Source of the DNA: a virus
Lineage: Duplodnaviria > Heunggongvirae > Uroviricota > Caudoviricetes
Virus record (IMG/VR): IMGVR_UViG_2645727945_000016
DNA: 4,187 nucleotides
Reading direction: 5' to 3' (one strand)
In this document: positions 66 to 4,187 of the stretch, in pieces
Layout of the letters: every line of letters starts with the position of its first letter
Numbering within the stretch: position 1 is the first letter of the stretch
The notes under the pieces: model-generated
Told to the model about the DNA's origin: nothing
What the model saw: only the letters and a program-made list of their open reading frames with translations
Databases searched by the model: none
Position numbers and translations under genes: made by a program

Positions 66-575
<510 letters not shown>

Positions 576-673: not shown

Positions 674-2854
674 TCAATCATCTTCTGGGAATGATGAACT
701 TAATAACGTAGCTTCTGCATATTGGTCGTAGATATTACTGCTAAAGGTCATAAAGCTGGTTTCATCTGGTTTAATGGCAACTTCACCACCAAGTGAAACT
801 TTCACTGGTTCCTGAATACGCTTACTCAAAGCACTAATTTCATCTCTTAGATTTTGGATGTCAGTGCTCGTTAATGATGCATCTTGTTTCATGGTAATCA
901 ATTCTGGATGATTGAATCTTGCAATATTCATTGTGGCATTGTTAAACAATTCACCCATTGAACTAAAAATTCTACTCCATCCTTCGTTAATCACATTCGG
1001 TTTATTAGGGTCACCAGAATACACAGGATTAAAGTCACTACCCACACCTACCCCAGATGGATGCATATTAGCGTTTTTGACTACTTCCTGATTCATAAAA
1101 TCCAGTGCTTTCTTCAATGCATATAAACCAAGAGTGACACCTCTGATTTGTGGAATCATTGAAGCTAATGCTAACGCTGTTTCATAACCGTCATCAGCAT
1201 AACCAATTGCAAGAGCACTACCTACACCACCAGCTACACATTTCAGTTTTTCACCACCTTTACCAGTAGCTACCTGACCAGCCACCTGATTAGCTCTTGT
1301 ACCTAACGTTGTGATTGCTCTTGTCAGGTTCATAACCCCTGTAGTAGCACTGAATAGTGTCTTTGCAGATAACGCTATAGCAAGACCTTTGACGAAGTTG
1401 ATAAATCCATCACCGACTTCATCAAGTAGCTTTCGCTTAGTGTCATCAAGACTGTAATAGAACTTCTTAGTCTGTAAAATCCAGCCTTCAAGGTGATTGT
1501 TAAAGATACGGATGTCATCTACACCAGCTTTAAGCATGTCGATAAGTCCACCGATAGCATCACCAGCGATAGAAGAACTCATACCCATTTCACTAAGCAG
1601 GTTACTCAGGCTGGATAAGAAGCCGTTTAACTCATCCTGTGAACCTGAGAAGATTTTAACCATCGTATCATCCCAGTTGTTTGCTAACTTACCTAAAGCT
1701 GTCTGAGTGCTCTTAGCGACTTCAGCCCAACCACCCGCTTTATCAATCATCAAGCCCATCTGTTTAGCGACTTTAGGGAGAGTATCACTACTTAAAATCT
1801 TCCCGTCTTTCATCGCTTTATCAAGCTCTGTAGCAGTCATACCCAATGCTTCAGCGAATAGCTTAAATGCACCAGCCATACGGTCACCTAACTGCCCACG
1901 TAATTCTTCAGCCTGAATCTTGCCCTTAGAAGCCATTTGCTCAAAAGCCTTCAGAATGCCGTTTAGCTCATCATTACTAAGCCCCATTAAGCGACTCATA
2001 GCCGTTGCATTACCAAATAGCTCCTGTGTCTGTTCCTGTGACATAGAACCCTGAGCACCTGCTGCAAACTTAGCGTAGCTTGATAGCCCTTCAGAGATAT
2101 TAAGACCTGTCTTGTCAGCCAGTCCCCTGATAAATGTTTCAGCTTCAGATGCTTTATCACCAAGTACAAACTTAGCGGCTCTCTGTGCGGAATCTCGTTT
2201 AAGACCTGCATTCATGATGGCCTTGTAAGCGTTAAGAGCACCCATCACAGAGTAAAATGCACCAGATAACTTGATTGCATTGCTTGCAAGATTATTAAAT
2301 GCGTCGCTTGTATTGTTAATGCTGGTGGCCTTTGTCTGTGACCTGAGTTTATTCAACGTTTCACGAAGAGATTGATTTAATTTTGCAAGTTCAGCGTTAA
2401 ACTTTTCACTTCCAATATTGCCAGCTTTACTACTTAATGCGTAAAACTGTGCTTTAAACATTTTAGCCATCAGCGGATTAATATCACCAAGCTTAGACAT
2501 ATTCACACTATGCGCTGCTGTGATTGCTCTGTTGCCGCTAATTCGTGGCTGTCTTGGTTGTTTTGGAGGATTAATAGCGTCATTAACCTGACTTGTGAAA
2601 CGGAAAACTTTAGTATTTCTTGCTCTCTGTTCAATCTTGTCAAAGGTCTTATTAAACTTCCTTTCAAGTTGCCCTAAAGAACTTGTCAGATTGCTGTCAA
2701 GTTGCTTGGTATCGACCTTAAACGCTCTATTCAAATTACGTTCAATTCTTTGTGCTGACTGCAAAGCTGCCTTTTCAACTCTTTGCAAGCCCTTAATAAC
2801 GTTCTCGCTGAAGCCTAGCTCAACGATAAAACTATCAACTTTAAATTGTGCCAT
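674..2854 (-). CDS. Phage tail tape measure protein (726 aa)
   Basis: 2181-nt ORF with AGGTGA (2869..2864) 9 nt upstream of the ATG at 2854 and an in-frame TGA two codons upstream, so this is the first possible start. The translation is long, largely alpha-helical and Ala/Gly/Ser/Leu-rich. The central stretch ELNGILKAFEQMASKGKIQAEELRGQLGDRMAGAFKLFAEALGMTATELDKAMKDGK resembles the conserved tape-measure domain as I recall it, and there are Gly-rich hydrophobic segments near the C-terminus (GGVGSALAIGYADDGYETALALASMIPQIRGVTLGLYAL) typical of this family. Family assignment is from recollection, not a search. Confidence 0.85.
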   Translation of the reverse strand: MAQFKVDSFIVELGFSENVIKGLQRVEKAALQSAQRIERNLNRAFKVDTKQLDSNLTSSLGQLERKFNKTFDKIEQRARNTKVFRFTSQVNDAINPPKQPRQPRISGNRAITAAHSVNMSKLGDINPLMAKMFKAQFYALSSKAGNIGSEKFNAELAKLNQSLRETLNKLRSQTKATSINNTSDAFNNLASNAIKLSGAFYSVMGALNAYKAIMNAGLKRDSAQRAAKFVLGDKASEAETFIRGLADKTGLNISEGLSSYAKFAAGAQGSMSQEQTQELFGNATAMSRLMGLSNDELNGILKAFEQMASKGKIQAEELRGQLGDRMAGAFKLFAEALGMTATELDKAMKDGKILSSDTLPKVAKQMGLMIDKAGGWAEVAKSTQTALGKLANNWDDTMVKIFSGSQDELNGFLSSLSNLLSEMGMSSSIAGDAIGGLIDMLKAGVDDIRIFNNHLEGWILQTKKFYYSLDDTKRKLLDEVGDGFINFVKGLAIALSAKTLFSATTGVMNLTRAITTLGTRANQVAGQVATGKGGEKLKCVAGGVGSALAIGYADDGYETALALASMIPQIRGVTLGLYALKKALDFMNQEVVKNANMHPSGVGVGSDFNPVYSGDPNKPNVINEGWSRIFSSMGELFNNATMNIARFNHPELITMKQDASLTSTDIQNLRDEISALSKRIQEPVKVSLGGEVAIKPDETSFMTFSSNIYDQYAEATLLSSSFPEDD

Positions 2855-2868
2855 TGTTCATATTTCAC

Positions 2869-2942
2869 CTCTGTTAAGCGTGAGCTACGTAAAAAATAAT
2901 TTTTGGTGGGTATATCTGTTCAGAAGATTTCACGTAGCACAC
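2869..2942. repeat. R2: 74-bp intergenic element, direct-repeat copy of R1, immediately upstream of the tape measure RBS
   Basis: See R1. Internal arms gctacgt (2884..2890) and acgtagc (2932..2938) are reverse complements. In minus-strand RNA the stem extends through a U-G wobble (2891/2931) and three A-U pairs. The minus-strand 3' end of the element (CGCTTAACAGAG) runs directly into the GGTGA Shine-Dalgarno of the tape measure gene. Confidence 0.85.
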
Positions 2943-2946
2943 ATAC

Positions 2947-2988
2947 AAAAAAGGGAGAAACTACCGATATCACTCGATAATCTCTCCC
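2947..2988 (-). terminator. Rho-independent terminator on the minus strand between the 67-aa gene and R2
   Basis: Minus-strand RNA reads GGGAGAGAUUAUCGA-GUGAUA-UCGGUAGUUUCUCCC followed by UUUUUU (plus-strand a-run 2947..2952). The stem is 15 bp in the minus transcript, three of them G-U wobbles; on the plus-strand transcript those positions would be A-C mismatches, so the structure is strand-specific. It starts 48 nt after the TAA stop at 3038..3036. Confidence 0.75.
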
Positions 2989-3035
2989 CGTATTATAGAT
3001 TCGATAGAACCTATCTCATATACCCAACCAATTCT

Positions 3036-3239
3036 TTATCTAATCAGATAATAATTACCATCTTCACCGACAATCTGACAATCACTTGGTAATTTATCAA
3101 GACACCATTTAGCGATTCTTCTGATTCTGCTATTTTGCCTAGAGGTGGATGATTTGATTCGTTTTGGTTTGTTGGGTTGTTCTTTCAATCTCTCGCTAAT
3201 TGCTTTAATAAGTTCATAGCGTTCCGTTAAATCAAACAT
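3036..3239 (-). CDS. Hypothetical small basic protein (67 aa)
   Basis: ATG at 3239 preceded by AAGGAGGTGA with a 5-nt spacer. An in-frame TGA lies immediately upstream of the ATG, so it is not a frameshift extension of the 236-aa gene. The central segment is Lys/Arg-rich (KPKRIKSSTSRQNSRIRRIAKW), suggesting nucleic-acid binding. A terminator follows. Function unknown. Confidence 0.65.
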   Translation of the reverse strand: MFDLTERYELIKAISERLKEQPNKPKRIKSSTSRQNSRIRRIAKWCLDKLPSDCQIVGEDGNYYLIR

Positions 3240-3264
3240 TCATCACCTCCTTTTTAATTCATAG

Positions 3265-3975
3265 TCAAAGTGCCTTTGCGTATTTCTGAGAAATCTTCAC
3301 TAACTGCTCAATATCAGCCTGCATAGCAACCTTCTTCTGCGTTTCATATGCAGAAATAAGGTCTTTCATAGCCTGAAGCTCTCTTAAGAGACACAACTTA
3401 ACATTTTCAAGTTGCTTGTTACGTGATGCTAAGATGTTCTGTCTGGCAATTTCACGGAGTTCTTCATCGCTCTTATTGGTCGTGTAAATAAACTGACCAG
3501 CACCTCTTGAAGCTTTAACCATCTTCACAATTCGATGTCCAGCAGGAAGACTACTAATCACGTCTGTGACGTTTTCTGGAAAAGTACCAAAACCATCATT
3601 GTCTTCGTATGTGAAGTAAACATACGGCTTCTGTGACAATTCATCCTGAATCTCAAATTCTGACGGCTCAATAGCTGATTGCATCAGGGTAACTTTGCTG
3701 TAAGCGTCATCAAGTTTAATACGTTGTTCTTTCAGCAGTGGGTAATATTTCTTTTCAAGATTAAGTAGTGCTTCACCCTTGCAGATATCTGGCATTTCTT
3801 GAGGCTCAGGAGACACAAAGATGATTTCCTTTGGTGACATCTTTAGCGATTGCTCAAGCTTAATTCTTTCATCGTGTTCTTTACGCTGAATAGTGATAGC
3901 TGGATGTTCAGTCTGTGGCGACCAGTCACCGAAGCTGTCAACCTTTTTACCGTTAATATATAAATCGTTTGTCAT
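3265..3975 (-). CDS. Hypothetical protein (236 aa) with a predicted coiled-coil C-terminal region; function unknown
   Basis: ATG at 3975 preceded by AGAGGAAA with a 6-7 nt spacer. Stop is TGA at 3267..3265, only 25 nt before the start of the 67-aa gene, so the two are probably co-transcribed. The C-terminal 70 aa or so is helical and heptad-like (EELREIARQNILASRNKQLENVKLCLLRELQAMKDLISAYETQKKVAMQADIEQLVKISQKYAKAL). I do not recognise it as a major tail, tube or chaperone family. Confidence 0.75.
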   Translation of the reverse strand: MTNDLYINGKKVDSFGDWSPQTEHPAITIQRKEHDERIKLEQSLKMSPKEIIFVSPEPQEMPDICKGEALLNLEKKYYPLLKEQRIKLDDAYSKVTLMQSAIEPSEFEIQDELSQKPYVYFTYEDNDGFGTFPENVTDVISSLPAGHRIVKMVKASRGAGQFIYTTNKSDEELREIARQNILASRNKQLENVKLCLLRELQAMKDLISAYETQKKVAMQADIEQLVKISQKYAKAL

Positions 3976-3997
3976 TACTATTTCCTCTAAGTGGTTA

Positions 3998-4075
3998 TTT
4001 CTTAATAGAGCACCTTCGACGACAATACACTTAGAAGATGACTTAACGATTTATTAAAGATGCTCTATTAAGAAA
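3998..4075. promoter_or_regulatory. Perfect 15-bp inverted repeat pair separated by 48 bp, in the 5' region of the 236-aa gene
   Basis: tttcttaatagagca (3998..4012) is the exact reverse complement of tgctctattaagaaa (4061..4075). The proximal arm ends about 10 nt upstream of the RBS of the 236-aa gene. Confidence 0.4.
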
Positions 4076-4104
4076 AGCCCTAAACATAATCTGTGAAGGG
4101 CTTT
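4067..4104 (-). terminator. Weak candidate terminator on the minus strand, for a gene lying upstream beyond the window end
   Basis: aaagccct (4074..4081) and agggcttt (4097..4104) are reverse complements with a 15-nt loop. The minus-strand RNA continues AGGGCUUUUCUUAAU. The stem has only about 4 G-C pairs. All three minus-strand frames have stops at 4150..4175, consistent with an upstream gene ending inside the window. Confidence 0.3.
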
Positions 4105-4187
4105 GAAGGTTTGCTTATAACGTTAACGAAGTTTCAGGAAAAACTTTCTTTAAAAGCTCTGTTTAAAAACTCTTAAAGAAAGCCCTA

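Follow-up and report, generated by a model that had tools for sequence, protein, structure and literature searches.

The 4,187-nucleotide stretch analysed here (IMG/VR virus record IMGVR_UViG_2645727945_000016; the window) carries two adjacent genes, encoding proteins of 236 and 67 amino acids (p236 and p67), immediately upstream of a gene for a tape measure protein (TMP). The window is part of an Escherichia coli chromosomal island and not of a phage genome, and p236 and p67 belong to no described protein family. Based on the position and conservation of the pair, its presumed co-transcription with tail genes and the analogy with the PLE satellites of Vibrio cholerae, we propose that p236 and p67 may redirect tail assembly, a reading to which we assign somewhat less than an even chance. 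The pair would open a helper-gated morphogenesis operon of a PLE-like satellite, which would parasitise virulent myophages of the Felix O1 type (Ounavirinae).

Exact copies of p236 were found on E. coli chromosomal contigs, within an insertion of 11,288 bp that interrupts yecE and has yecN on one side and yecD-aspS on the other. The GC content of this island is 39.2%, versus 51-53% in the flanking DNA and 38.9% in the phage Felixounavirus garuso (hereafter garuso). The island encodes, in order, a methyltransferase (Dam with a helix-turn-helix (HTH) domain, Dam-HTH), a 320-aa replication initiator matching phrog_270 (E = 1e-9), several small open reading frames (ORFs), p236, p67, the TMP, a Dit-like protein and a large serine recombinase (LSR) of 507 aa, whose gene is convergent to the tail genes. 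The replication-initiator gene contains three tandem 23-nt iterons (ACCCAACCA.AA.TTGGTTAC.T; 7030-7098 of island locus L002), probably the replication origin of the island. Only two tail genes are present, those for the TMP and for the Dit-like protein, a tube initiator. The pair, which an earlier note on this DNA had placed in a phage, is thus carried by a yecE island of about 11.3 kb with its own recombinase and replication initiator. It was detected in 374 of 5,426 complete E. coli genomes (about 7%); all 402 occurrences in E. coli genomes were chromosomal and none was on a plasmid. Each of the nine IMG/VR loci found with this LSR carried the full gene set.

All genes of the window are on the minus strand. 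The gene pair and its ribosome-binding sites (RBSs) are located as follows:

3265-3975, minus strand: p236, ORF of 236 aa (ORF call, homologues, alignment, AlphaFold2 (AF2) model and dN/dS)

3036-3239, minus strand: p67, basic ORF of 67 aa (ORF call, charge and predicted structure)

3983-3987, minus strand: RBS of p236 (GAGGA), 7 nt ahead of the ATG

3246-3250, minus strand: RBS of p67 (GGAGG, inside AAGGAGGTGA), 6 nt ahead of the ATG

The ORF coordinates and the GAGGA and GGAGG sequences confirm the earlier description of two ORFs separated by 25 nt (3240-3264) and each provided with a strong RBS of its own. The RBS of p236 can pair with upstream sequence (inverted repeat I6, TCTTCTAAGTG / CACTTAGAGGA). 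The claim that the two genes have no frameshift relationship was also borne out, as the p67 frame is offset by +1 relative to that of p236, a TGA directly 5' of the p67 ATG closes the p67 frame, and inspection of the sequence of the region revealed no slippery site and no programmed frameshift of the G/GT type. The gap between p67 and the TMP gene is 181 nt in the window. Both p236 and p67 are real genes, since the ratios of nonsynonymous to synonymous substitutions (dN/dS) against allelic copies are low (0.29-0.37 for p236 and 0.09-0.31 for p67) and full-length homologues reach down to 26-31% identity for p236 and to about 46% for p67.

The p236 protein is mildly acidic, with an isoelectric point (pI) of 5.6. 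Its AF2 model (mean predicted local distance difference test (pLDDT) score of 75, with the N-terminal 64 residues poorly ordered) is an antiparallel coiled-coil hairpin formed by helices 68-100 and 170-235. The C-terminal helix is continuous over residues 170-235 and packed on helix 68-100, in agreement with the coiled-coil C-terminus previously read from the translation. A small alpha/beta domain (residues 106-166) forms the tip of the predicted hairpin and, according to the alignment, contains the invariant motifs D127-G128-x-G130 and P144-x-G146. The p67 protein is as highly basic as the earlier note had stated (pI 9.7, 15 Lys and Arg among 67 residues), and it exists as mosaic allele types. 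Its predicted structure (pLDDT 72) comprises an N-terminal helix (residues 4-20), a Lys/Arg-rich linker (residues 21-39) and a small C-terminal beta-rich domain, which holds a conserved K-W-C-x-D-x-x-P-S-D motif.

Searches of Pfam, NCBIfam, PHROGs and PADLOC placed neither protein in a family and returned only PHROG noise at E of about 0.04; the defence-system profiles of PADLOC-DB 2023 gave no match either. Nor were matches obtained for the p236 and p67 profiles among PDB sequences, for both proteins by tblastn against 50,697 phage records, or for the family profile hidden Markov models (HMMs) against all ORFs of garuso. Fold searches yielded nothing beyond generic coiled-coil matches for p236 and no match for p67. 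These results agree with the earlier impression that neither translation resembles a known family; an assignment to a known family of tail, tube or chaperone proteins, which would have spoken against it, was not obtained in the homology and fold searches. An exhaustive HMMER search of 1.84 billion cluster representatives recovered relatives of p236 in only 20 clusters, five of which were full-length distant relatives, and a contig profile scan with a four-sequence p236 alignment yielded only two species. An apparent 1,358-aa homologue (P0136) was discarded as a spurious match to an LPAGH repeat. An Rfam scan of the island gave no match.

In hundreds of genomes, p236 bears the NCBI PGAP label 'transposase' and is devoid of a transposase domain. 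This name was rejected, as the Pfam and NCBIfam searches identified no catalytic or DNA-binding domain in the protein, and the database annotation is hereby corrected. At locus L017 (179-889), where p236 appeared to lie in another context, an insertion sequence (IS), which we take to be IS911 from the sequence of the fusion ORF, is in fact inserted into p236, giving a p236-IS fusion ORF. Such fusions may be the origin of the transposase name.

The link between the island and Felix O1-type phages comes from the genes that follow the pair:

674-2854, minus strand: island TMP, 726 aa (PF20155; phrog_4036, E = 2e-96)

93-515, minus strand: 5' part of the tube-initiator gene (Dit-like, 'phage baseplate protein'), about 96% identical at the nucleotide level to Felixounavirus phages, IS-truncated here

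1-92, strand not given: end of ISEc12 (IS21 family), inserted into the tube-initiator gene

The location of the TMP gene confirms that the pair occupies the slot directly upstream of it. Overall, the island TMP is about 30-34% identical to the TMPs of Ounavirinae, but it almost matches Felix O1-type TMPs over its first ~45 and last ~10 residues. The Dit-like protein is homologous to the product of the gene that follows the TMP gene in Felix O1-type phages, and this product was identified as the tube initiator, gp18, in the virion structure of phage Bas63 (PMC12609058). The island tube initiator is chimeric (L002 13461-14249 compared with garuso gp119, L001 5629-6429): its tube-like domain (residues 6-180) is about 98% identical to the phage protein, whereas the C-terminal ~80 residues diverge, with only about 25% identity. 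In Bas63, the C-terminal extension of the tube initiator threads through the baseplate (PMC12609058). The ISEc12 insertion in the window alters this C-terminus, giving a protein of 156 aa instead of 262, and the ISEc12/tube-initiator junction is present at 100% identity in complete genomes, e.g., NZ_CP029973.1. The TMP (E = 7e-78) and the tube initiator (E = 3e-118) are the sole island proteins with homologues in a Felixounavirus genome. Furthermore, the left arm of the island includes three blocks of non-coding DNA (L002 4551-4614, 5317-5472 and 5494-5572) with 84-89% identity to non-coding DNA of Ounavirinae. One block matches a divergent intergenic region (phage Moogle; garuso 57728-57782), and two are collinear with a large gene-free region of garuso (49952-50107). 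A near-identical 48-nt block, found in three copies in phage NBEco004, adjoins the yecE junction. The copied non-coding blocks could represent mimicked promoter, origin or packaging sites and, together with the helper-like GC content, indirectly suggest that the island may rely on such a phage as a helper for its excision, replication, packaging and transduction.

The island shows the traits of a satellite, namely an LSR, a replication initiator and origin of its own, and a TMP and a hub-proximal protein that are paralogous to those of a virulent myophage. Its satellite lifestyle is inferred from hallmarks shared with the V. cholerae PLEs. These are LSR islands of the virulent myophage ICP1 that encode their own tail assembly chaperone (TAC), TMP and baseplate hub protein and form chimeric tails, as first shown in 2026 (PMC12987554). 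The satellite TMP of PLEs is selectively incorporated 'through an unknown mechanism', and PLE11 additionally encodes Rta, an orphan 80-aa inhibitor of the helper TMP that has no homologues outside satellites (PMC12987554). By gene content, the yecE island resembles the PLEs (tac-tmp-bhuB; PMC12987554) in being chromosomal, in having an LSR and its own replication initiator, and in its association with a virulent myophage. Both elements have a partial tail module consisting of a TMP and a hub-proximal protein paralogous to those of the helper, and both carry genes in the chaperone slot ahead of the TMP gene; among the PLE proteins, the small orphan Rta acts on tail assembly. The two differ in the gene ahead of the TMP gene, which in PLEs has the fold of a true TAC (PDB 5IR0, similar to HK97 2OB9), a similarity that was not found for p236 and p67, and in the second structural gene, which encodes a Dit-like tube initiator in the island and BhuB in PLEs. 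The host and helper clade also differs (Enterobacteriaceae and Ounavirinae), and the island is known from sequence alone. A further parallel is offered by the Tai systems of phage-inducible chromosomal islands (PICIs), prophages and P4-like satellites, which target the tail tip protein J or the needle of temperate phages (PMC11364771). Like the proposed action of p236 and p67, Tai proteins are encoded by mobile elements and act on phage tail assembly, sometimes together with a counter-defence gene (PMC11364771). The island type is different, the likeness to Tai was drawn by description only, and the resemblance of the pair to both Rta and Tai is one of logic. No literature linking Felixounavirus or Ounavirinae to satellites or phage-inducible chromosomal islands was found, nor any description of this island, in a survey of incomplete coverage that leaves a prior description possible. 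Satellites of the PLE type with tail genes of their own are known; what would be new here is the host and helper clade of a satellite that carries part of a tail module, and the fact that the genes in its chaperone slot are non-homologous.

The regulatory DNA around the pair comprises the following elements:

2942-2989, minus strand: intrinsic terminator after p67 (16-bp stem at 2952-2989, T-run at 2942-2951)

3976-4187, minus strand: 3' half of the ~400-nt p236 leader, with conserved hairpins (arms 3998-4016/4057-4075 and 4074-4086/4092-4104)

2869-2942, minus strand: island-specific cis element, copy 1, upstream of the TMP gene, including a 47-nt direct repeat (L002 11061-11107)

593-664, minus strand: cis element and direct repeat, copy 2, upstream of the tube-initiator gene (L002 13337-13383)

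The terminator after p67 is kept in every island variant examined, including those of Citrobacter and Pluralibacter, and its stem sequence varies. In L016 and L025, the spacer between p67 and the TMP gene is only 74-99 nt long and consists of the terminator and the RBS. As no room is left there for a promoter, the TMP gene must be read through from an upstream promoter. The dedicated terminator described in the earlier note is therefore present and conserved, but it does not isolate the pair; its probable role is that of an attenuator or antitermination target and not of a full stop. A sigma-70 promoter (TTGACA-17-CATAAT, an 11/12 match with a TG extension) lies about 400 nt upstream of p236 and is kept in all 12 islands. 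In the aligned islands (11 of 12, the exception being that of Pluralibacter, L019), it is followed by a hairpin of variable stem, which in L002 (promoter and leader at 9575-9999) comes within ~10 nt, and many variants have further terminator-like hairpins in the leader. The promoter and the first of these hairpins are situated just past the end of the window. This layout suggests antitermination control. The genes for p236, p67, the TMP and the tube initiator would accordingly form one terminator-gated operon, with read-through inferred from the spacers. The location of the pair ahead of an attenuating terminator fits proteins needed in excess over the TMP and the tube initiator, which are present in few copies per tail.

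The cis element precedes the TMP gene, the tube-initiator gene or both in every island. It has inverted CTACGTGAA arms and a conserved tail, CACGCTTAAC (the tail of the repeat also reads CACGCTTAACAG); in copy 1, the inverted arms GTGCTACGTGAAA / TTTTACGTAGCTCAC are about 33 nt apart and are followed by CACGCTTAACAGAGGTG and then by the RBS. The differences between arms are G-U-compatible, which hints at an RNA hairpin. The element was also considered as a mimic of a helper late promoter, and this was rejected, as neither the phage records nor the garuso genome contain it. In L005 (10940-11185), the whole TMP gene is absent and p67 stands directly ahead of the tube-initiator gene, probably as a result of recombination between the two repeat copies.

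These elements bear on a regulatory explanation, according to which p67, p236 or both would govern the life cycle of the island, as an antiterminator or activator that takes transcription past the terminators in the leader and after p67, a factor that targets the ACGT inverted-repeat element, or a recombination directionality factor (RDF) of the LSR. Several terminator-like hairpins gate the operon, copies of the inverted-repeat element stand right after p67 and ahead of the tube-initiator gene, and p67 is a small, basic protein with a disordered Lys/Arg linker, whose Arg/Lys-rich segment followed by a Trp recalls arginine-rich RNA-binding motifs. Small size is also a feature of several known RDFs of large serine recombinases. 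No HTH, zinc finger or known RNA-binding fold was found, however, and a coiled-coil protein of 236 aa would be an unusual regulator. Moreover, p67 does not track the recombinase: its allele types differ by about 55% between islands whose LSRs are 93-95% identical, and type B persists where the LSRs are only 34-63% identical. The p67 alleles do not track the variants of the cis element either. We regard a regulatory role of the pair as distinctly unlikely.

The order p236, optional ORF, p67, terminator, TMP, tube initiator and LSR is kept across the E. coli variants and in the islands of Citrobacter, whose recombinase is only 34% identical, and Pluralibacter, whose island occupies another chromosomal site and encodes a p236 of 29-31% identity. 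The comparison of related phages recommended in the earlier note thus returned the same order in islands of three genera, whereas the phages have G/GT genes in this place. Among E. coli variants, identity is 62-87% for p236, 40-94% for p67 and 40-86% for the TMP. A second allele class of p236 (L031 10001-10705) shares only 26% identity with p236 of the window and resides in the same yecE island type, with recombinases 93% identical, an extreme case of diversification confined to one locus. An optional small acidic ORF (91-102 aa, pI about 4.8) is located between p236 and p67 in L023 (8221-8529) and L019 (10697-10972), and a longer related insert occupies the 450-nt gap between the two genes in L024 (10712-11160). 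The copies of this ORF are homologous to each other (motif DGRDDLT...ERGVECI) and match no family. The other variable cargo lies in the left arm: in the variant L023 (10266-10553 and 13178-13702; bloodstream isolate KBN10P04869), an HNH endonuclease and an AP2-domain protein replace Dam-HTH. In the same variant, insertions of IS2 and ISEc12 have broken the TMP and recombinase genes. The left-arm swap and the IS-disrupted genes of L023 indicate that the islands are mosaic and often decaying.

The distribution of the pair is relevant to the suggestion in the earlier note that it may be an accessory (moron-type) cassette, i.e., unrelated cargo such as a defence, toxin-antitoxin, superinfection-exclusion or anti-defence system riding in the island. 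The pairing of an acidic with a basic protein, their orphan status and a weak PHROG match to an antitoxin family (E = 0.039) would fit such cargo. This option is disfavoured, and we judge it highly improbable, as the pair is core: every island variant of E. coli, Citrobacter and Pluralibacter has it in this place, even where identity has fallen to 26-31%, and the small acidic ORF is the optional element. The pair was absent from plasmids and phage records, no PADLOC match was obtained, and the variable cargo sits elsewhere, in the left arm and in the optional ORF.

In the scheme that we favour, p236 and p67 would be satellite-specific factors that redirect tail assembly, encoded in the G/GT slot and non-homologous to G/GT. 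The operon would consist of the sigma-70 promoter, the leader with tandem terminator-like hairpins, p236, the optional acidic ORF, p67, the attenuating terminator, the TMP gene and the tube-initiator gene. The role of the pair would be to have the TMP and tube initiator of the satellite, and not those of the phage, built into tails made from stolen phage parts. The coiled-coil hairpin of p236, with its conserved tip, would bind a helical partner of the tail core, acting either as an escort of the satellite TMP or as a block on the helper TMP or chaperone; p67 would serve as a partner or adaptor of p236.

Felix O1-type phages carry ordinary acidic G/GT chaperones in the slot ahead of the TMP gene, and those of garuso (garuso_116/117) have 132 and 79 aa (pI 4.8 and 4.5, respectively), with a -1 slippery site linking the two. 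Like G/GT, p236 and p67 are encoded by two adjacent genes immediately upstream of a tape measure gene. The location directly upstream of the TMP gene, a mark of TACs, applies to the pair, though the conserved terminator intervenes; the helper phage also has a terminator just ahead of its chaperone-TMP genes. Compared with lambda G/GT, HK97 gp10 and garuso_116/117, the pair differs in size and charge (236 aa with a pI of 5.6 and 67 aa with a pI of 9.7), in its separate RBSs, in the stop that closes the second frame and in the terminator ahead of the TMP gene. In a BLASTP comparison of p236 and p67 with the G and T chaperones of garuso, the sole match was a 7-residue INGKKV stretch (E = 0.14), which was treated as chance, as distant homologues lack it and the codons differ.

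Several observations weigh against a tail-assembly role of this kind. TACs are small (~100-150 aa) acidic proteins, which describes neither p236, with its 236 aa, nor the basic p67. No known TAC family in Pfam, PHROGs or NCBIfam matched either protein at E <= 1, the profile search of PDB sequences, which include HK97 2OB9 and PLE 5IR0, returned no TAC at E <= 10, the fold searches yielded no tail assembly chaperone, and the pair shows no frameshift. The island TMP keeps a helper-like N-terminus, so it might use the chaperones of the helper itself. In addition, the TMP and tube initiator of L031 are 91% and 98.5% identical to those of the window despite the 26% identity of p236, and the N-terminal types of the TMP assort independently of p236. 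Co-variation of p236 or p67 with TMP, tube-initiator or LSR alleles was sought as a pointer to the partner, and none was found. The lack of p236/TMP co-variation argues against an allele-specific chaperone-client pair. Within the tail-redirection proposal, we therefore lean towards a helper-directed target, e.g., the blocking or diversion of the helper TMP or chaperone, and away from an allele-specific chaperone for the island TMP. The divergent chaperone or scaffold pair suggested in the earlier note hence holds up as the best reading by position and analogy, but not by homology.

A rival explanation is capsid-size redirection, in which p236 would be an external or internal scaffold comparable to P4 Sid, PLE TcaP or SaPI CpmB, directing the formation of small capsids for the 11.3-kb island, with p67 as an accessory. 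Most satellites of large phages remodel capsids. The island, with 11,288 bp, is close in size to P4 (11,624 bp) and amounts to one eighth of the helper (85.8 kb). All sizeable island proteins except p236 have been assigned a role. p236 is largely helical, approaches the length of Sid (244 aa) and is encoded upstream of the attenuator, which would suit a protein required in high copy number. It shares with P4 Sid and Psu, PLE TcaP and SaPI CpmB that they are satellite-encoded, largely helical proteins of ~240 aa, expressed late from elements of about 11 kb. On the other hand, hhalign comparisons of p236 with P4 Sid and Psu gave probabilities of only 0.7% and 0.1%, respectively, fold searches returned no scaffold or capsid-associated protein, and the predicted hairpin with its globular tip differs from the extended architecture of Sid. 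Unlike Sid and Psu, p236 is linked to tail and not to capsid genes, and its gene is always found beside them. We consider a capsid-directed function unlikely.

The helical hairpin of p236 also recalls the oligomerisation cores of small terminases (TerS), which are helical hairpins, and TerS proteins are commonly encoded by satellites. p236 could thus be small-terminase-like and, with the basic p67 as a DNA-binding partner, steer the large terminase of the helper to island DNA, as in PICIs and PICMIs. A packaging-specificity function of this type appears very unlikely to us.

Felix O1-type phages are widely used in the typing of Salmonella and E. coli, in biocontrol and in therapy. An island that is present in about 7% of complete E. 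coli genomes and has copied tail-core genes and regulatory DNA from them would represent a hitherto overlooked parasite, and probably a resistance determinant against these phages. If the tail-redirection proposal is true, the diversification of p236 (26-87% identity in islands that are otherwise 93% alike) would stem from an arms race with the tail-core proteins of the helper. How satellite tail proteins are chosen over those of the phage is still open, and p236 and p67 are concrete candidates in a tractable E. coli system, in which the question is directly testable. It is possible, albeit doubtful, that the island is the first satellite of Felix O1-type virulent coliphages and that p236 and p67 represent a new class of tail-assembly selectors, which would force the satellite TMP and tube initiator into helper-built tails or block those of the helper.

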